Positions 9,435 through 51,955 of a stretch of DNA of 51,955 bases are shown in pieces (position 1 is the stretch's first letter; each line of letters starts with the position of its first letter). Below the pieces are notes generated by a model that did not search any database, was not told the DNA's origin, and was given only the letters and a program-made list of their open reading frames with translations. A program made the position numbers and the translations under genes. Origin of the DNA: Deltaproteobacteria bacterium (GTDB taxonomy: Bacteria; Desulfobacterota; Dissulfuribacteria; Dissulfuribacterales; UBA3076); NCBI GenBank assembly GCA_030262715.1, contig JAJSZR010000002.1, positions 1 through 51,955 on the forward strand. Direction: 5' to 3'.

Positions 9435-9642
9435 GGCGTCCTTCACGACAAGTCAAAAGTAGTTTACACTTTGTTGATCTTGTATTTTGGCGATGAAATT
9501 TGAAACTTGAAATTGGGAAAAACACAAAGATGTAGATGAATTACCTAATTTCGAATTTCGAATTTCCAGTTTCGACATCGGCATTCAATTCGATAATGCA
9601 CACTTTTTCAAAAAAAGTGTAAACTGGTGAATGAAGGATGTC
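9435..9642 (+). mobile_element. ~210-bp MITE-like repeat, copy 1
   Basis: Terminal IR GGC(G/A)TCCTTCA...TGAAGGATG(T/C)C, sub-terminal IR AGTTTACACTT/AAGTGTAAACT, inner facing GAAATT/AATTTC heptamer arrays; near-identical to the copies at 16727 and 30331. Confidence 0.85.
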
Positions 9643-14821: not shown

Positions 14822-14988
14822 GTAAGCGTTTACGAAATTGGAAATTGGAAATTGGAAATTTGGATAAGTGGAACAAAAAGGTTCAGAACATCGTGGGCTA
14901 TCAGTAATACGATCATCTAAAGCAGTACAAAAGCATGAAGACCAAATTTCCAATTTCTAATTTCAAGTTTCAAGCCGTGAACGGCTAC
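14822..14988 (+). mobile_element. Heptamer-flanked micro-cassette A with four-helix-bundle gene remnant
   Basis: GTAAGCGTTTAC-(GAAATTG)n-[DKWNKKVQNIVGYQ...STKA*]-(AATTTC)n-AAGCCGTGAACGGCTAC. Confidence 0.75.
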
Positions 14989-15060: not shown

Positions 15061-15921
15061 TCATATCTCGTCTGCCCTGAGCAACCGTATAACTCGTTCC
15101 AGATCCTGGACAGAACGATAGCGTATCTCCAACCTGCCGCCCTTTTTGGTCTGCACTATTTTTACCTTAGAACCAAGTCTGCGAGTCAGGTCTTCGCAAA
15201 GATTCTTGATGTCAGGATCTTCCTTTCTAACTCTTGCACTTAGCCTTTTTCCTTTGGCTAATCGACGGGCCAGGGCCTCTGCCTTGCGTACGGAAAGACT
15301 TTTTTTAATTATCTGGTCTCTTAACTCCTTTTGCCTTTCAGGATCCTCCACCGTCAAAAGGGCCCGGGTATGGCCCATGCTGAGCCGTCCATCAAGCAGA
15401 TCGGTTTGAGCATAGCCGGGTAAATTGAGAAGTCTCAGGAAATTGGCCACAGTGGACCTTTCCCTTCCCACTCTTGAGGCTACCTGGGACTGTGTAAGTC
15501 CCAGCTCATTAATAAGCCTGCCATAGGCCATAGCCTCTTCCAGGGGGTTCAAATCGTCTCTCTGGATATTCTCAACCAGTGCCAGCTCAAGAGGCTCGTC
15601 CGGGCTCACGTCCTTTATGACCACAGGGACCGCCTTAAGCCCGGCCTTTTGGGCCGCCCTCCACCGTCTTTCGCCGACTATCAGCTCATAAACACCATCA
15701 ACCTGGCAGACCACCAGGGGCTGAAGGACCCCTTTCTCCTTGATGGATCTGGCAAGGCCTTCAAGGGAATCATGATCCATACGCCTTCGCGGCTGATCGG
15801 GATTCGGCCGGATCTTTTCTATGGGACAGAGGAAAAATCCGGGACTCTCTAAATCATATATGTCTTCTGTAGATAGAAGGGCTCCAAGCCCTTTGCCTAA
15901 TCCCCTTTTGGGCTTCATCAC
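15061..15921 (-). CDS. parB: Chromosome partitioning protein ParB/Spo0J
   Basis: RGLGKGLGALL, PNPDQPR, GERRWRA, ENIQRDDLNPLEEA, HTH. Confidence 0.96.
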   Translation of the reverse strand: MMKPKRGLGKGLGALLSTEDIYDLESPGFFLCPIEKIRPNPDQPRRRMDHDSLEGLARSIKEKGVLQPLVVCQVDGVYELIVGERRWRAAQKAGLKAVPVVIKDVSPDEPLELALVENIQRDDLNPLEEAMAYGRLINELGLTQSQVASRVGRERSTVANFLRLLNLPGYAQTDLLDGRLSMGHTRALLTVEDPERQKELRDQIIKKSLSVRKAEALARRLAKGKRLSARVRKEDPDIKNLCEDLTRRLGSKVKIVQTKKGGRLEIRYRSVQDLERVIRLLRADEI

Positions 15922-16706
15922 GACCTCCTCTGGCAGCCCAGGAACTCACGAGCCAGGGCCAGATAGCTTTCTGCCCCCTTGGATCTCGGTTCGTATGAAA
16001 ATATCGTCTTTCCATGACTTGGGCTCTCACCCAATCTTACGTTTCTGGGGATAGTAGTCCTGTAAACCAGGTCTCTGAAATGTGTCCGGACCTCACGTGC
16101 GACTTGAAATGCAAGACGAATGCGGTAATCGTACATGGTCAGCAACAGTCCTTCAATATGTAGTCTGGGATTGAAGTTGTGTTTTACCAGCCTTATGATC
16201 TTTATCAATTGGCTCAAGCCCTCAAGTGCATAATATTCACATTGCATGGGAATAATTACGGAGCTGGAGGCACTCAGGGCATTTATGGTTATCAGACCAA
16301 GAGAGGGAGGACAGTCTAATAATATATAATCAAACGAACTTAAAGGAGCTAAAAGTTCCTTCAGTACGCCCTCTCTATTCTTGCGTGCTGCCAGATCCAC
16401 CTCTATGCCCACCAGGTCCATATTTGAAGGAATAATTGAAAGATTGGCAACGGGCGTAGGCTGTATCACTTCGGCCGTGCTGGCTAAACCAAGGATAGCG
16501 TGGTAGAGGTGCCTATCCAGCCCTTTTTGGCCAATTCCGAGGCCGCTGGTAGCGTTTCCCTGGGCATCGCAATCTACAAGCAATACAGACTTCTTGAGAA
16601 TGGAAAGGCCTGCTGCCAGATTAACCGCGGTTGTGGTCTTGCCCACGCCACCTTTCTGGTTAGCTATACATATTATCTTGGTTTTTCGTAACTGTGAGCT
16701 TGTCAT
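15918..16706 (-). CDS. parA: Chromosome partitioning ATPase ParA/Soj
   Basis: NQKGGVGKTT, DCPPSLG, QCEYYALEG, IPRNVRL. The ORF-track extension to 16883 runs through the MITE. Confidence 0.96.
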   Translation of the reverse strand: MTSSQLRKTKIICIANQKGGVGKTTTAVNLAAGLSILKKSVLLVDCDAQGNATSGLGIGQKGLDRHLYHAILGLASTAEVIQPTPVANLSIIPSNMDLVGIEVDLAARKNREGVLKELLAPLSSFDYILLDCPPSLGLITINALSASSSVIIPMQCEYYALEGLSQLIKIIRLVKHNFNPRLHIEGLLLTMYDYRIRLAFQVAREVRTHFRDLVYRTTIPRNVRLGESPSHGKTIFSYEPRSKGAESYLALAREFLGCQRRS

Positions 16707-16726: not shown

Positions 16727-16937
16727 GGCATCCTTCACGACAAGTCAAAAGTAGTTTACACTTTGTTGATCTTGTGTTTTGGCAGTGAAATTGGAAATTG
16801 GAAATTGGGGAAAACACAAAAAAGATGTAGATGCGTTGCCTAATTTCGAATTTCGAATTTCCAGTTTCGACATCGGCATTCAATTCGATAATACACGCTT
16901 TTTCGAAAAAAGTGTAAACTGGTGAACGAAGGATGCC
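16727..16937 (+). mobile_element. ~210-bp MITE-like repeat, copy 2
   Basis: GGCATCCTTC...GAAGGATGCC ends; near-identical to copies 1 and 3. Confidence 0.85.
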
Positions 16938-30330: not shown

Positions 30331-30551
30331 GGCATCCTTCACGACAAGTCAAAAGTAGTTTGCACTTTGTTGATCTTGTATTTTGGTAGTGAAATTTGAA
30401 ACTCGAAATTTGAAATTGGGAAAAACACAAAGATAAAGATATAGATGCGTTACCTAATTTCTAATTTCTAATTTCCAGTTTCGACATCGACATTCAATTC
30501 AATAATATACGCTTTTTCGAAAAAAGTGTAAACTGGTGAATGAAGGATGCC
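30331..30551 (+). mobile_element. ~220-bp MITE-like repeat, copy 3
   Basis: GGCATCCTTCA...TGAAGGATGCC perfect 11-bp TIR, starting just after the upstream stop codon; near-identical to copies 1 and 2. Confidence 0.85.
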
Positions 30552-46257: not shown

Positions 46258-46428
46258 TGTTCCGGTATCCTTACATAGTAAGCCAAAAGTTGTTTACACT
46301 TTATTCATCCTGTACTTTGGCAGTGAAATTTGAAATTTGAAATTAGAGCTGATTAATCGAGTTGTTATTCAGTTTTTATCCAAATTTCCAATTTCTAGTT
46401 TCCAGTTTCGGCATCCAGTACGGGAACA
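46258..46428 (+). mobile_element. Diverged fourth copy of the ~210-bp repeat with a different core and right end
   Basis: AAGCCAAAAGTTGTTTACACTTT...TTTGGCAGTGAAATTTGAAATTTG...TTTCCAGTTTCGGCATC aligns to copies 1-3; bounded by TGTTCCGGTA/TACGGGAACA. Confidence 0.7.
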
Positions 46429-47250: not shown

Positions 47251-48612
47251 TCAGCTTGTAAGTTGTCTGGCAAGCCTTTCCGAATTTGCAACGCAGTCGT
47301 TGAGACTTATACCACCAAGCCAATTACATCTGATATAGAGCCCGGGATAAGACCTCAGAGTCAAATCGATTTCAGAAGCAATGGCCTGGTGTCCCTTCTC
47401 GTACTGTGGAATGGCCTCCTTCCACCTAAAAATCTTCACAAACTCCGGTTCACCCTTCAACCCAATGAGATCTGAAGATTCTTTTACCACCAGGTCCAGA
47501 AGGGATGCGTCAGGGAGTCTGGCCAGGTCCGGTGCCCTTGCACCACCTACCAGGGTCCTTATAAGCTGATAACCTTCAGGGGCTCTGTTGGGGAAAATGG
47601 ACGAATCCCAGAGGGCCCCAAGGATTGAGCGTTTCTCACTGCCCGGGGCAAGAAACCCGAATCCATTCAGGGAATTCTCAGTGGTTCCCTGTCTAATGCC
47701 CATACACACAATACTTACAGGGGGATAATTTATTTGCACTGCAAGTTTTACAATATCCGGGGCAGTCTCTTTAAGGACTTCTGAAACCGCCTTAACAGGA
47801 CATGCCAGCACCACGTGGCTTGCATCAAGTTCCTCCCCGTCTTGTAAACAGACACGCCAGCCGGTGTCCTGCTTTGAAATCGAAGCTACGGAAGAGTTCA
47901 ACCGTACTGCAGGACCCAGTGCCTTGACAAGGGCATCTACTAGCTCATTCATGCCGGTAGTAAAGGAAGTGAGAACGCCTCCAGGACCGGCACCCGGACC
48001 CTTTTCCCCTTTTTTCCTTGCCTTTCTCTGAAGCCGGATCATGGCCCTGATCAAGCTGCCGTAGTCACGCTCAAGTTCGTGGATCCTGGGAAAGCAGCTA
48101 CGAAGAGACAGTCGCTCCGGATCTCCGGCATAGATCCCGGTAGCCATGGGATCTATGAGATATTCAAAGGCCTCCCTGCCAAGACGCCTTCTTGCAAAGT
48201 CAGCCAGGGACTCGTCCTCAGAGAGGTCACCTTTTGACACCAGGGCCTCGGCCAGGACCCTCAATCGTCCGGGTAGAGAGAGTATTTTCGAGCTTAAGAA
48301 CTGCGCGGGCGATACAGGGAGTTGAATCAGTTGCCCGTTCTTTATCACAAAACGGCGCCTGGCTGCATCATTGCTTCTCAGGGGCTCAAGTCCGAGCCTG
48401 GCGGCAAGGGCAAGAGTTGAAGGCTTGTTGTCAAGCACGCCATTTACGCCCTTTTCGCACACAAAGCCATCCTCTTTTATAGTCCATGCCTTGCCTCCAG
48501 CCCTGGCCCCTGCCTCAAGCACCAGAACTTCCCAGCCGGGCCTGAGTTCCTTGAGGAACCAGGCAAGGGACAGGCCTGACAACCCGCCTCCTGCTATTAT
48601 TACTTTAGCCAT
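47251..48612 (-). CDS. hemY: HemY-type proto-/coproporphyrinogen oxidase
   Basis: GGGLSGL FAD motif, GIYAGDPERLS, GFGFL, AIPQY. Confidence 0.93.
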   Translation of the reverse strand: MAKVIIAGGGLSGLSLAWFLKELRPGWEVLVLEAGARAGGKAWTIKEDGFVCEKGVNGVLDNKPSTLALAARLGLEPLRSNDAARRRFVIKNGQLIQLPVSPAQFLSSKILSLPGRLRVLAEALVSKGDLSEDESLADFARRRLGREAFEYLIDPMATGIYAGDPERLSLRSCFPRIHELERDYGSLIRAMIRLQRKARKKGEKGPGAGPGGVLTSFTTGMNELVDALVKALGPAVRLNSSVASISKQDTGWRVCLQDGEELDASHVVLACPVKAVSEVLKETAPDIVKLAVQINYPPVSIVCMGIRQGTTENSLNGFGFLAPGSEKRSILGALWDSSIFPNRAPEGYQLIRTLVGGARAPDLARLPDASLLDLVVKESSDLIGLKGEPEFVKIFRWKEAIPQYEKGHQAIASEIDLTLRSYPGLYIRCNWLGGISLNDCVANSERLARQLTS

Positions 48613-48622
48613 GTAATCATGT

Positions 48623-48857
48623 TGAAATTGGAAATTGGAAATTGGAAGATAGAAAATAGAAAATAGAAATTGGAAATTTGACTTTCATGCTTTTGTACTG
48701 TTGATGATAGTATTATCTGATAACCTACGGTGTTCTGAACTTTTTTGTTCCACTTACCCAAATTTCAAATTTCAAATTTCAAGCCGTTCATTTCCCCCCA
48801 AATTTCCAATTTCCAATTTCTATTCCCAAATTTCAAGTTTCAAGCCGGAACGGCTAC
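48623..48857 (-). mobile_element. Heptamer-flanked micro-cassette B with four-helix-bundle gene remnant
   Basis: Minus strand GTAGCCGTTCCGGCTTGAAA-(GAAATT)n...[GKWNKKVQNTVGYQII / INSTKA*] (48748-48685)-(AATTTC)n. Confidence 0.75.
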
Positions 48858-48859
48858 TT

Positions 48860-49822
48860 TTACTCCAGCCATCCCGCCTTCTTAAGACCCTGCTCCACCA
48901 GATTGGAAAGTGCATTGATAAACAAAGGCCTGTCATTAAGGGAGGGCGTGCGAATAAGTCGTACCCCCTTTTCGGCCATCATTCCGGAATAAAGCATGTC
49001 TATTTCGTAGAGAGTCTCTATATGATCCGACACAAAACTTATAGGCAGGACCAAAAGGCTATGGAAACCCTTTTCTGCAAGCTCGTTCAGCAAAACATCG
49101 GTCCCAGGCTCAAGCCACTCCACAGGACCGCTCCTGCTCTGATAGCACAGATGGCCCTTAAGACCGGTCAGTTCCTCAAGGACCGTAATAGTACGATAAA
49201 GGTGATCCACATATGGATCACCTTCCTCTACCATGCTTTTTGGCAGGCTATGGGCGCTGTATACAAGGGCGAATTTCTCTTTGTCTTTTACCTTTTTCAT
49301 GCCCTCTTGCACGATATCCGCCAGGGCCGCGACATAGCCCGGATCATCCGGAAAGCTGTCTATGACAAGGGTTTCAAACCCAAGCCCTCCTGCGCATCTT
49401 TCAAACTCACTTATGGAAGAACCACTAGTGGCCCGGCTATAGTGTGGATAAAGAGAAAGGCCCAGCACTTTAGAGATACCCCTGTCTTTCATATTATGTA
49501 AGACGTCCGGGGTCCGCGGGTTCCAGTATCTCATTCCTGCAAGGCAAAATACATTTTCCTGCAGTTTTTTATTTAGCAATTGCTCAACGGCCTTGGCCTG
49601 AACTCTGGTAATAGAGGCAAGCGGGCTCCTGCCCCCGATCTTTGCATACGCAGCCCGGCTCTTCGGAGCCCGCCGCCTGGATATTGCCCAGGCAATAAGG
49701 GGTTGCAAAAAGCGCGGGCCCAGTTGAATAATTTCGCGGTCTGAAAAGAGGTTATAAAGAAAGGGCCTCACCGTAGCCAGGGAATCCGGCCCCCCCATGT
49801 TGAGGAAAACTATCCCTATCAT
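48860..49822 (-). CDS. hemH: Ferrochelatase
   Basis: NMGGP, GGRSPL, LYPHYS, SAHSLP, YQSR.GP..WL.P, FVSDHIETLYEID; TGATG overlap with hemE. Confidence 0.96.
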   Translation of the reverse strand: MIGIVFLNMGGPDSLATVRPFLYNLFSDREIIQLGPRFLQPLIAWAISRRRAPKSRAAYAKIGGRSPLASITRVQAKAVEQLLNKKLQENVFCLAGMRYWNPRTPDVLHNMKDRGISKVLGLSLYPHYSRATSGSSISEFERCAGGLGFETLVIDSFPDDPGYVAALADIVQEGMKKVKDKEKFALVYSAHSLPKSMVEEGDPYVDHLYRTITVLEELTGLKGHLCYQSRSGPVEWLEPGTDVLLNELAEKGFHSLLVLPISFVSDHIETLYEIDMLYSGMMAEKGVRLIRTPSLNDRPLFINALSNLVEQGLKKAGWLE

Positions 49823-50847
49823 CAGCAAGACAACTCGTGTACCAGTTCTACCAGGAGCTTTACCTTCTCAGGAGGTATCTCAGGTGGGATACCGTGACCC
49901 AGATTAAAGATGTGGGCCTTGGCCTCCCGGCCTTGGCGCAATACGGAATCCACCCTGGTTCTTAGCTTATGCTCAGGAAGAAACAGGGCACATGGATCCA
50001 GATTTCCTTGGACTATGGCATCGGATCCAAGTCTTGATATGGCGATCTCTATGTCCATACGCCAATCCAGCCCTATGACTTCGGCACCTGAATCACGTAT
50101 GATTTCAAGGACATGCCCTCCATTAAAGACAAAGTAGATAAAGGGCACCCCTGAACCCTCAAGTCCTTTGAGAATACTGGTTACATATGGGAGGGCGCAT
50201 CTATTGTAATCCTCTTTGTTCAGGATACCTGCCCAGGTATCAAATACCTGTATGGCCTGAGCGCCCGCCTTGATCTGGGCCTTGATGTAAGAAAGGACAA
50301 CTTCGGTAATGAGATCCATGAGTCGAGAAAAGAGGGAGGGGGACTCAAACAGCATCCTTTTTGTATTTACAAAACTCTTTGAGGAACCTCCTTCTATAAT
50401 ATAAGTCGCAAGGGTAAAGGGTGCCCCTGAAAAACCTATCAGCGGGACCTTGTCACTAAGTTCTTTCCTCAAGATCCGGATGGTCTCAAGTACGAATGAT
50501 ACATCGGCATCCGGATCTATAGGATGAAGCCTTTCAATATCCTGCTCAGTCCTTACGGGAGGATTCAAGACAGGACCCCTTCCCTCGTGGAAATCAAGCC
50601 CTATTCCCATGCACTCAAGGGGGATCAGTATATCGGAAAAGAGTATGGCTGCGTCAACTCCCAGTATATCCACCGGCTGGATGGTAACCTCTGCCGCAAG
50701 CTCCGGGGTCTTACAGAGGGTGAGAAAGTCTATTTTTTTTCTGACCTCCTGATAGGCAGGAAGATATCTCCCGGCCTGCCTCATGAGCCAGACCGGCACT
50801 GGCCTGACGGCCTCACCATTACAGGCCCTTAAAAAGGCTTCATTCAT
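49822..50847 (-). CDS. hemE: Uroporphyrinogen decarboxylase
   Basis: PVWLMRQAGRYLP, ILFSDIL, QGNLDP, FNLGHGI; AGGAGG RBS before ATG 50847. Confidence 0.97.
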   Translation of the reverse strand: MNEAFLRACNGEAVRPVPVWLMRQAGRYLPAYQEVRKKIDFLTLCKTPELAAEVTIQPVDILGVDAAILFSDILIPLECMGIGLDFHEGRGPVLNPPVRTEQDIERLHPIDPDADVSFVLETIRILRKELSDKVPLIGFSGAPFTLATYIIEGGSSKSFVNTKRMLFESPSLFSRLMDLITEVVLSYIKAQIKAGAQAIQVFDTWAGILNKEDYNRCALPYVTSILKGLEGSGVPFIYFVFNGGHVLEIIRDSGAEVIGLDWRMDIEIAISRLGSDAIVQGNLDPCALFLPEHKLRTRVDSVLRQGREAKAHIFNLGHGIPPEIPPEKVKLLVELVHELSC

Positions 50848-50891
50848 CCTGTCCTCCTGGAGGTTGAAATTGGAAATTGGAAATTTGGCCT

Positions 50892-51080
50892 TCATGTTTT
50901 TGTACTGTTGATAAATGCATTCAATTTTGGGCCGATTTTTTCAACTATTGCTTTGTATTCCGTCGCATTTGACTCAGATAAAATTTTTCTTCTGATAAGT
51001 TTTCGCAACCATGATTTGGTTTCTTCATCTGATAACTCTTCTGCCAGTTTGTAAACATCCAACTCATAGACTCGTTTCAT
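50892..51080 (-). pseudogene. Four-helix-bundle protein (23S IVP/TIGR02436-like) with in-frame internal deletion; cargo of micro-cassette C (50863-51128)
   Basis: MKRVYELDVYKLAEELSD|EETKSWL...KLNAFINSTKT, 62 aa. It has the family's N- and C-terminal motifs but lacks the central Q..RS..S...NIAEG segment. Flanked by facing heptamer arrays. Confidence 0.8.
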
Positions 51081-51129
51081 GTTTCCCAATTTCCAATTTC
51101 TAATTTCCAATTTCAAGCCGGAACGGCTT

Positions 51130-51955
51130 TCAACTCTTCTTTCTCATTTTTCTCGGCACGTAGTTACAGAAAGGCTCTTCGGCAAGATAATCACCATAGA
51201 TTGCATAGGCCCTGGCCCTGCATCCCCCGCAAACCCGGATATACTCACAGGCACCGCAACGTCCCTTGTAGGAAGAAAAATCTCTTAGTTCCTTGAAAAG
51301 ATGGCTCTCTTCCCAAATTTCCTTGAAGGAGTGTTTATGAATATTTCCTGCCGGTAAGGGGAAGTAACTGCAAGGAAGCACATTTCCATCCACGTCGATA
51401 AGTGAGATCAACTGACCTGCCAGGCAGCCCTTGGAGCCGCCGGTGGAAAACTTGAGGCTCCTGTGCTCTATCCTTTCGCCCTGTTCCTTGGCCCTCTGGA
51501 GACGAATACGGTAGTAATGCGGCGCGCAGGTAGGCCTGACAAGAATATCTTTTTCCTTCTTTTCCATCTCGTAATGCCAGTTGAGCAGGGTCTCATAATC
51601 TTCAGGGGAGATAAGCTCTTCCATGATCTCCTTTCCCCGCCCGGTCGGCACAATCATGAACATATACCACGCAGTAGCCCCTATCTGCTTGGCCAGTCTG
51701 TAAACCTTAGGGATTTCCTTCTGGTTCCTGCGAGTAAAGGAAGAATTGATCAGAAAGCTTATGCCATGTTCTCTGAAGAGCCTGGCGGCATTTATGGCGT
51801 ATTCAAAGGCACCCGGCTGCTGGCGGAAATCGTCATGGACCTCGGCCGTGGCTCCGTCAAGACTGAGAGAAACCATGCATATGCCGGAGTCCTTTATCCT
51901 GGTGCAGACCTCCGGGGTTACAAAGGTGCCGTTCGTGGCAAGGCACATCCTCAGG
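51130..51955 (-). CDS. Radical SAM/SPASM protein, AhbD/NirJ-like (5' end outside the window)
   Basis: ATNG, SLDG...[35 protein letters not shown]...PFC; directly upstream of hemE. Confidence 0.85.

Follow-up and report, generated by a model that had tools for sequence, protein, structure and literature searches.

Three heptamer-flanked elements in the window

The DNA analysed here (the window) is a stretch of 51,955 nucleotides from a Deltaproteobacteria bacterium (assembly GCA_030262715.1, contig JAJSZR010000002.1), corresponding to contig C2 of the G000 assembly, which comprises 2.62 Mb in 220 contigs and is 94% complete. It carries three intergenic elements, designated A, B and C, in which a (GAAATTG)n array on one flank and a (CAATTTC)n array on the opposite flank enclose a short cargo derived from a gene for a four-helix-bundle protein (PF05635/TIGR02436). 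An earlier note, made from the sequence of the window, had described the three as relics of one gene that would move as a small non-autonomous cassette into operon junctions and then collapse. The positions and array layout that it gave were confirmed, as were the heme-gene and parB-ECF neighbours, the quoted reading frames and the in-frame join within C. The heptamer doublet GAAATTGGAAATTG was counted 37 times in the window when as many as 2 mismatches were tolerated, whereas shuffled sequences averaged 1.09 occurrences and never exceeded 6 (0 of 100 shuffles reached 37). Nearly all the genomes considered in this study are metagenome bins, and gene context was obtained with a crude caller of open reading frames (ORFs).

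Elements B and C lie at two gene junctions of a minus-strand run (47251..51948) encoding a HemY-like oxidase of the amine-oxidase family, ferrochelatase, URO-D and a radical-SAM/SPASM protein. Element C is located between the last two of these genes. Its left terminal repeat is reduced to a remnant, GAAAGCCGTTCCGGCTTGAAA (51111..51131, minus strand), which forms a small GCCG..CGGC hairpin and overlaps the radical-SAM stop codon. On the same strand, this remnant is followed by a 5' array, (GAAATTG/A)4 (51087..51114), by the cargo (50892..51080) and by a 3' array (50863..50886), after which the right terminal repeat is gone and the hemE ribosome-binding site and ATG (50847) come directly. The cargo is a 62-aa in-frame relic of the four-helix-bundle gene without the DKWNKKVQN segment, and its profile scores (19 bits for TIGR02436 and 15.6 bits for PF05635) are both under the cut-offs. 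The mechanically called hemE ORF (49822-50895) includes 16 extra codons read from the heptamer array, and its true start is probably the ATG at 50847.

Element B, between the genes for the HemY-like protein and ferrochelatase (hemH), is also read on the minus strand and has a composite structure. Its left terminal repeat, GTAGCCGTTCCGGCTTGAAA (48838..48857), is followed by a 5' part (48760..48837) in which an extra left end, an outer array (48800-48837) and a start-codon remnant are fused to a truncated second left end (48780-48799), with an inner array at 48760-48781. The cargo (48680..48759) and the 3' heptamer arrays (48623..48679) come next, and beyond them lies a duplicate of the overlap between the hemY start and the hemH stop, both genes being whole. 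Element A, flanked by genes for an ECF-type sigma factor and ParB, consists of a right-type terminal repeat on its left side, GTAAGCGTTTAC (14822..14833), a (GAAATTG)4 array (14834..14861, plus strand), a cargo (14862..14943, plus strand) and a (CAATTTC)n array followed by a reversed left-type terminal repeat (14944..14988, with TTTCAAGCCGTGAACGGCTAC at 14968-14988); no strand is assigned to its two outer features. The cargo of A is flipped relative to both of its ends, so that the ends are co-oriented with the neighbouring genes and the cargo is not. The earlier note, which placed A opposite to its neighbours, had missed this flip.

The three cargos finish with the same 3' sequence, CAGTACAAAA(A/G)CATGAA, found on the plus strand in A and on the minus strand in B and C, as had been claimed. 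The end motif that had also been attributed to all of them, GTAGCCGTTC(A)CGGCTTGAAA, is whole in A (14968-14988, reverse complement) and B (48838-48857), whereas C retains it (51111-51131) without the leading GTAG. The cargos of A and B gave no match to the TIGR02436 or PF05635 profiles, and an Rfam scan of the window returned no family at gathering scores. In runs X1-X3, which are salt-marsh and marine-sediment metagenomes, summed contig depth over the element bins of 48557-48913 and 50818-51174 exceeded that over the neighbouring genes by factors of tens to hundreds; this excess, which is not a copy number, fits the presence of many related copies across many organisms.

A full-length parent, its deleted derivatives and IS66-type ends

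A PF05635 search of G000 returned 9 places, 6 of them above the cut-off, and the parent cassette was found among the other contigs of this genome (C73:9819-10275, 457 bp). Its two ends, GTAGCCGTTCACGGCTTGAAA on the left and ...TTTCAACGTTCCGTGAACGCTTA on the right, enclose a 117-aa ORF with a heptamer array before it and an inverted one after it. The ORF is the sole one in the cassette, inside which there is no transposase, and it encodes, in this order, MKRVYELDVYKLAEELSD, the DKWNKKVQNTVGYQ segment kept in A and B, and EETKSWL...INSTKA. The two segments therefore belong to one gene in the order that had been predicted, and full-length copies are also present in four sister species (G004, G005, G012 and G017). 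The parent protein scores 81.2 bits with PF05635 (cut-off 33.8) and 82 bits with TIGR02436 (cut-off 24), which places it in the proposed family, for which lengths of approximately 115-125 aa had been given. Residues 6-114 match, at the sequence level, the solved chain 2GSC (XCC0516; E 2.6e-4), and the protein is basic, with an isoelectric point (pI) of 9.55.

The heptamer arrays of G000 number 173, divided almost evenly between the strands (87 and 86), and 55 close plus/minus pairs were recognised among them. Most of the pairs enclose cores of 28-50 nt that fall into 3 types, one of which is the four-helix-bundle start codon joined to the last 16 bases of the gene. When the 457-nt parent was compared with G000 by blastn, 53 clusters were obtained, with 42 cargo-bearing copies of which 1 is full length, although copy counts vary with blast thresholds. 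The deleted copies form a series of recurrent classes: D1 (parent 1-48, 127-181 and 377-457; 12 copies), to which A and B belong, D2 (parent 1-59 and 395-457; 10-11 copies), D3 (parent 1-180 and 377-457; 3 copies), D4 (parent 1-105 and 317-457; 2 copies) and D5 (parent approximately 1-55 and 302-457; 2-3 copies). There are also several unique forms, including element C, which comprises parent 3-106 and 259-432 and has lost 107-258. Two junction subtypes were distinguished in D1. The subtype D1a, with the TCATC microhomology already suspected at the junction of B and now confirmed, was found in B (parent ~127-180 joined to 377 onward), in three other D1 copies and in all three D3 copies, and D1b (...TCTGAAACAGTAC) in A (parent 122-181 joined to the 3' end) and seven others. 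A and B are members of a twice-deleted class that was deleted before spreading, its copies having target duplications of their own.

Within copies located between co-directional ORFs, the cargo reads in the host direction in 21 out of 25 cases, and the gaps to the two neighbouring ORFs mostly range from a few bases up to a few tens. In 3 copies (A and those on contigs C150 and C41) the cargo is inverted with respect to the ends, suggesting recombination between the inverted arrays. The C41 locus (15745-16076) is further complicated by a core-type-1 array element nested within the four-helix-bundle-derived copy, whose own cargo is the flipped one.

The intact form has terminal inverted repeats that are imperfect and read GTAGCCGTTCACGG... 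at its left and GTAAGCGTTCACGG... at its right end. A search of G000 for the end motifs with loose mismatches gave 57 matches, 32 left (GTAGCCGTTCACGGCTTGAAA) and 25 right (GTAAGCGTTCACGGAACGTTGAAA), nearly all of them at copies of the cassette, and no transposase gene flanked by the end motif was found among these matches. The copies are bordered by target-site duplications of 8 bp that abut the ends, as illustrated by the parent, which has AGTTTCTT on either side. At least 8 of 9 flank bases were equal in 11 of the 18 two-ended copies, compared with 10 of 306 mismatched-pair controls. Likewise, in other genomes at least 7 of 8 flank bases were equal in 10 of 13 copies with both end motifs (6 of them perfect), two of these copies coming from bins titled Neomarinimicrobiota.

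Ends starting with GTAAGCG and 8-bp direct repeats are given as hallmarks of the IS66 family in the accessible passages of two papers (PMC11946415, PMC12888890). The right end of the cassette starts with GTAAGCG, and the left end, GTAGCCG, agrees with it at 5 of 7 bases. The IS66 transposase profile (PF03050) scored above its cut-off in 8 of the 17 sister genomes. The copy in G011, 1.65 kb long with a 516-aa ORF (PF03050, 110 bits), begins with GTAACCGTTCAC, which is identical at 11 of 12 positions to both cassette ends of G000 and at 12 of 12 to the right end of the relatives. On the strength of these ends and the 8-bp duplications, we read the cassette as non-autonomous and as probably mobilised in trans by a transposase of the IS66 family. 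The earlier observation that no mobilising enzyme is visible in the window can be refined in this sense: the copies contain no transposase, and their ends and duplications point to such an enzyme acting in trans.

A longer duplication of flanking sequence was also considered as a general insertion signature and was dropped, as only 1 of 64 loci (L048, 52 nt) stood above the controls. This locus lies on a 44-kb contig of a Neomarinimicrobiota-titled bin and encodes a protein 95% identical to the G000 parent, with a synonymous divergence (dS) of 0.135; it has no 8-bp duplication and, alone among the 64 loci, lies between perfect direct repeats of host sequence that are 52 nt long.

Variation between sister species and occurrence across phyla

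Every one of the 17 genomes of the genus contains the cassette family (11-39 matches per genome); it was detected weakly in 1 of 3 genomes from other genera of the same family, and in 0 of 20 genomes searched in other families of the order. The orthologous junctions were compared in these 17 sister species. Some alleles are empty and others filled, and the filled alleles differ both in their deletions and in the element inserted; the earlier note had asked for a comparison of empty, filled and deleted alleles. Neither of the two conditions that the note had set for its refutation, the lack of a full-length homolog with both segments and junctions without presence/absence variation, was borne out. 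At the radSAM-hemE junction, which hosts element C, 13 relatives were informative. The site is empty in G011 and G016, where the radical-SAM frame runs into or overlaps the hemE ATG, it holds a 15-nt allele in G017, and in G007 only a right end is present. One insertion is common to G000, G001, G002, G006 and G008, which have the same unusual right junction without the right end, but its state differs among them. The copy in G006 is near full length and, although interrupted by another repeat, keeps the segment that C has lost, which bears out the proposal that the segment retained in A and B is part of what C lacks. The G000 copy has lost positions 107-258, that of G001 bears a different in-frame deletion, that of G002 has collapsed down to the arrays, and that of G008 is interrupted by another small element. 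Element C is therefore a case of in-place collapse, and the proposed course of insertion followed by decay applies to it, but not to A and B, which belong to the 12-copy class. In the filled alleles of this junction, the element boundary (51130-51132) provides the radical-SAM stop codon. A small element at C139:12004-12150 of G008 (L136 5-150) measures approximately 146 nt and has ends, GTAACCGTTCACGGGG and GTAAGCGTTCACAGGG, of the same end family.

The same junction has received other insertions. In G004, G009, G013 and G014 (L030, L033, L032 and L025) it is occupied by a different element with GGTTCAG/CTGAACC arrays, whose core of approximately 50 nt has opposite orientations in G014/G004 and in G013/G009, indicating that cores flip between inverted arrays, and G010 carries a third kind of element. 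The hemH-hemY junction, which hosts element B, is empty in 11 relatives, in which the two genes overlap (the sequence was read in 5 of them), whereas at the same point G014 has a different array element and G016 an unrelated 128-nt insert. About 20 nt of the hemH/hemY overlap are duplicated in G000 and G014, and this duplication leaves both genes whole. Presence/absence variation of B was also found at a much shorter distance, as a 1761-nt metagenome contig approximately 98% identical to the window skips exactly 48599-48860. At the junction of A, between the sigma factor and ParB genes, the left flank was found in no relatives but G015 and G005, on contigs that break at the element, which makes this site uninformative for presence or absence.

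An alignment of three paralogues, searched against one genome per species, returned 80 loci, all of them close relatives of the parent protein (62-97% identity over the best segment). The array-gene-array module is conserved across phyla, with representatives in at least 10 phylum-level groups, where records are titled Desulfobacterales, other Thermodesulfobacteriota, Neomarinimicrobiota, Bacteroidota, Verrucomicrobiota, Kiritimatiellia, Lentisphaerae, Fibrobacterota, Nitrospinia, Nitrospirae, Anaerolineales and Pseudomonadota; this grouping is our own, based on record titles, and single bins may be mis-binned. Complete genomes carrying the module are those of Desulfosarcina alkanivorans PL12 and Desulfonema magnum 4be13. 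Among the 66 loci with at least 100 nt on either side, inverted double GAWAYTN units were found on both sides in 48, on one side in 17 and on neither side in 1. The intact genes are under purifying selection, with ratios of nonsynonymous to synonymous divergence (dN/dS) of 0.05-0.25. With respect to the G000 copy, dS is 0.12-0.24 in most of the Desulfobacterales bins tested, 0.54 in the Desulfosarcina isolate and 0.135 in the Neomarinimicrobiota bin, and in the Bacteroidales and Verrucomicrobiota copies it exceeds 1 or is saturated, with GAAAYTN arrays still kept.

Inverted arrays also accompany other PF05635 subfamilies. The family is present in 82 of the 151 genomes sampled from the phylum, and other paralogues of G000 lie between arrays of GAAGGTA/GAAGGCT, of GAACATC/GAACGTC and of a 9-mer. 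A locus was scored as positive if the 130 nt before the gene and the reverse-complemented 130 nt after it had at least 3 8-mers in common, with shifted windows as controls. The best locus in each of 30 genomes was positive in 21 of 30 cases compared with 6 of 110 controls, the clear arrays having period 7, and in five genomes whose loci are titled Bacteroidales, Chryseolinea, Pontiellaceae, Verrucomicrobiota and Anaerolineales the corresponding figures were 22 of 29 and 4 of 110, with period 7 as the best period in 18 of 19. Altogether, inverted period-7 arrays flank 43 of 59 other PF05635 genes and 10 of 220 controls, which makes them a general trait of the family, with a unit that differs per paralogue; the GAWAYTN unit was found in 0 of the 30 loci of other subfamilies. 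As the arms remain complementary while the unit changes, this covariation speaks in favour of pairing. Sharing of at least 20 flank 7-mers was observed in 10 of 15 pairs of loci with at least 60% protein identity and in 2 of 420 other pairs. Over all 435 pairs, the correlation between protein identity and flank similarity was weak (rho 0.126, matched by 81 of 2000 permutations) because the flank 7-mers include homologous coding ends, and the argument on unit and subfamily rests on the strongly sharing pairs.

Several of the other PF05635 paralogues of G000 are damaged. The one at C35:6426-6806, between 9-mer arrays, has an in-frame TAG, that at C190:1-287 loses similarity after approximately 60 residues, and at C28:6721-6924 a C-terminal piece lies directly behind a long helicase-like ORF. 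In addition, approximately 1 kb upstream of the four-helix-bundle cassette on C202, at L005 38-109, lies a sequence that matches group II introns (RF00029) with 40.3 bits, slightly more than the gathering score requires.

Proposed mobility within operons and alternative explanations

In our view, A, B and C quite probably derive by decay from a non-autonomous mobile insertion cassette or miniature inverted-repeat transposable element (MITE) that combines IS66-type ends with a module of the type known from rRNA intervening sequences. According to this explanation, an IS66-family transposase acting in trans would move the cassette, and enzymes with matching ends are encoded in sister genomes. 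The spread of D1 and D2, which have no intact gene yet show 8-bp duplications, matches the prediction of trans-mobilisation by a transposase. The copies that persist are mostly those in tight junctions of co-directional genes with the cargo in the host orientation, and internal deletions at short microhomologies would then erode the gene until hairpins remain. By analogy with the intervening sequence of Coxiella 23S rRNA, the two arrays of a read-through operon transcript may pair into a long stem that RNase III cuts, and this processing would uncouple the insert from the operon RNA and make it tolerable inside operons.

The folding predictions are consistent with such a stem. The arrays, together with the ends in the full element, are predicted to form one long stem around the ORF, with z-scores of -2.6 for C, -4.6 for A and -4.4 for the parent, and G000 has an RNase III gene. 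From the predicted stems, this gene and the host orientation of the cargos, we infer read-through transcription and stem cleavage. A 131-nt contig from an RNA library runs from the radSAM end into element C, with one heptamer fewer, and may represent DNA carry-over. In the accessible text of Warrier et al. (2016, PMC4990558), the Coxiella intervening sequence is described as a 428-nt selfish element with an S23p ORF, preceded by three tandem heptamers (GACAGAT) before the ATG whose repeat number varies by strain, and as having a 176-bp ORF deletion in one strain; it is excised by RNase III, with the 5' cut at the first repeat. Older ideas quoted there regard intervening sequences as relics of transposition or mobile elements.

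Several observations weigh against this explanation. The IS66 transposase was not found in the G000 assembly (best PF03050 score, 13 bits), although repeats are often missing from metagenome bins such as this one, and the 8-bp flanks of the G011 IS66 copy do not match each other. The canonical end is missing on one side in C, A and several other copies, and the duplication flanking B and the insert at the same point in G014, of approximately 20 nt, is one that an 8-bp staggered cut does not explain. Beyond the genus, IS66-type end motifs were recognised at 17 of the 66 loci, 9 with motifs at either end and 8 with a motif at one end, and the cassettes of other PF05635 subfamilies mostly have arrays without recognisable IS66-type ends, many of them showing nothing beyond the arrays; IS66-type mobilisation is therefore not the general route of the module. 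On the RNA side, a simple scan found no promoter in the arrays and no terminator, the single promoter-like site of the full element lying inside the gene and being no better than in shuffled sequences. The run data consist of contigs only, none of the sequencing runs holding more than 0.40 of the sampled words, and the RNase III cut and the read-through transcription are inferred.

The scarcity of IS66-type ends outside the genus gives weight to a serious rival, in which the array-gene-array module itself would be the mobile or selfish unit, with a protein that may read its own heptamer arrays as DNA or RNA, and the IS66-type ends would be a lineage-specific add-on. Across many phyla at least one array was found at 65 of the 66 loci, 48 of them with both, and end motifs at only 17, the GAAAYTN unit persists where synonymous sites are saturated, other subfamilies use other units, flanks co-vary with subfamily among the pairs of at least 60% identity, and the intact genes encode a basic protein maintained by purifying selection. 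Nevertheless, this protein is a 117-aa helical bundle without known nuclease or recombinase motif, D1 and D2 have spread without an intact gene and with 8-bp duplications beside terminal repeats, and co-inheritance alone could yield the weak correlation between identity and flanks, so that on balance we regard this alternative as distinctly unlikely. Somewhat less doubtful, but still improbable, is a more general proposal, that PF05635/TIGR02436 genes are not free-standing and may constitute the coding core of an ancient selfish module made of a gene and two inverted, subfamily-specific heptamer arrays. By reading its own arrays, as a double-stranded RNA stem or as DNA, the protein would help the module to be processed, maintained or moved. 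The hairpins of operon junctions, the intervening sequences of 23S rRNA and the Avd of retroelements would all be offshoots of this pairing of protein and repeats, and period 7 with one unit per paralogue would represent a recognition code.

The tight co-directional junctions, the 21 of 25 co-oriented cargos and the strong predicted stems might also be expected of vertically inherited host regulatory elements, such as sites of mRNA processing or stability or REP-type attenuators, in which the gene fragments would be incidental. This possibility is contradicted by the empty alleles (hemH-hemY in 11 and radSAM-hemE in 2 sister species), and the unrelated inserts at the same point in different species, the target-site duplications and the occurrence of the same cassette in other phyla make it very improbable. 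Independent in-place deletion of all short forms, with recurrent breakpoints acting as deletion hotspots, would agree with the junctions at microhomologies (e.g., TCATC and TTTG), with the in-place collapse at radSAM-hemE and with the similar products of the D1a and D1b junctions. However, 12 D1 copies share two deletions and approximately 10 D2 copies share one, at different loci and in several cases with their own duplications (C32, C49 and C77), while intermediates are rare (3 copies of D3) and the same derivative classes recur in sister genomes, which renders a hotspot origin for all of them highly unlikely. Finally, the genes could be Avd-type accessory components or remnants of diversity-generating retroelements, given that PF05635 proteins resemble Avd according to the accessible text of PMC10053308 and that the paralogue on C44 has a weak NF033474 match (25.7 bits). 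That score is far under the cut-off of 80, the parent gives no match to this model, the cassettes hold a single gene, and the absence of a reverse transcriptase (RVT_1) match in G000, at 94% completeness, contradicts such a role in this genome; we find this origin scarcely credible.

Two known systems stand close to the preferred explanation, a mobile insertion cassette with an intervening-sequence-type module. As in the cassettes, the intervening sequences of 23S rRNA in Coxiella burnetii, Leptospira and Xanthomonas hold a gene of the same protein family in the loop between complementary arms, and that of Coxiella shares with them the tandem heptamers upstream of the ATG, the variation in copy number and the ORF deletions; the available passages call these sequences selfish, probably horizontally acquired and possibly leftovers of transposition (PMC4990558). 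Their defining location is helix 25 or 45 of the 23S rRNA gene, whereas the cassettes lie between protein-coding genes: no rRNA match was found within approximately 1.5 kb of any of the 36 PF05635 loci tested, and none of these lies in an rRNA gene. Unlike the intervening sequences, the cassettes have documented terminal inverted repeats, 8-bp duplications, dozens of copies and amplified deletion derivatives, and cutting by RNase III, demonstrated for Coxiella, would be expected for them by analogy. With mobile insertion cassettes and MITEs derived from insertion sequences, here of the IS66 family (ends with the start GTAAGCG and 8-bp direct repeats; PMC11946415, PMC12888890), the cassettes have in common IS66-type ends, 8-bp duplications and the lack of an internal transposase. 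In both, the long form carries one passenger gene, and short copies are many and insertions nested, but here the passenger has its own inverted heptamer arrays, with which it travels even without IS-type ends. Moreover, the left end GTAGCCG departs from the canonical start of the IS66 family, whose cognate transposase was not found in G000. Avd belongs to a related family of small basic four-helix-bundle proteins (available text of PMC10053308), in systems that differ from these loci, where there is no reverse transcriptase, template repeat or variable repeat and the Avd model scores under its cut-off.

Avd is a nucleic-acid-binding protein. Eukaryotic foldback transposons have long terminal inverted repeats made of short tandem subrepeats and undergo frequent internal deletions and inversions, but they are much larger and unrelated in sequence and coding content, and serve as an analogy only. 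Repetitive extragenic palindromic sequences and bacterial interspersed mosaic elements (REP/BIME), enterobacterial repetitive intergenic consensus (ERIC) sequences and Correia elements are, like the cassettes, dispersed intergenic palindromes that are co-transcribed, some of them being cut by RNase III. To our knowledge, none of them contains a gene or is built of heptamer arrays, and REP sequences, as far as we know, are moved by tyrosine-type transposases without 8-bp duplications. Outside subscription journals and supplements, the literature searched contained no account of the cassette family and none of S23p modules with IS66-type ends. Inverted arrays of period 7 were not described there as a trait of the family either, apart from the single observation on the Coxiella intervening sequence.

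The PF05635/TIGR02436 family is very common and often multicopy, without a settled function. It owes its name to the 23S rRNA intervening sequences, whose origin and mobility have been an open question since the 1990s, with hypotheses quoted in PMC4990558. Between intact gene and bare hairpin, the locus family described here offers a full set of intermediates. It also offers terminal repeats, 8-bp duplications, a transposase family as candidate mobiliser, sister species with empty and with filled alleles, and evidence of a module that crosses phylum boundaries. It makes testable the intervening-sequence module as a transposable cassette, the stem as an RNase III site that would permit life in operons and rRNA, and the recognition of repeats by the protein. 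As regards annotation, the cassettes account for many cases in sediment metagenome bins where an ORF is spuriously extended or a contig breaks.

Four further hairpins of the window, at 9502-9573, 16787-16868, 30405-30482 and 46325-46402, have other core types. The first three consist of GAAATTG-type arrays around a different 30-nt core (GGTAACGCATCTACATC...) and lie within a separate element of approximately 140-250 nt with its own terminal repeats, GGCATCCTTCAT...GTTTACAC, which gave 57 blastn matches across the genome; one type of array is therefore common to two element families that are not related. The hairpin at 46325-46402, as well as those at C110:7488-7729 and C43:2503-2723, has a third core type (GAGCTGATTAATCGAG...) within this same outer element. 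In the C110 and C43 copies, the loop of the GAGCTGATTAATCGAG core holds a further small element with ends GTAAGTTCTCAATAAG..., and that of C110 bears an 8-bp duplication, GTTTTTAT, at its ends, which makes it a second candidate for an IS66-type MITE.

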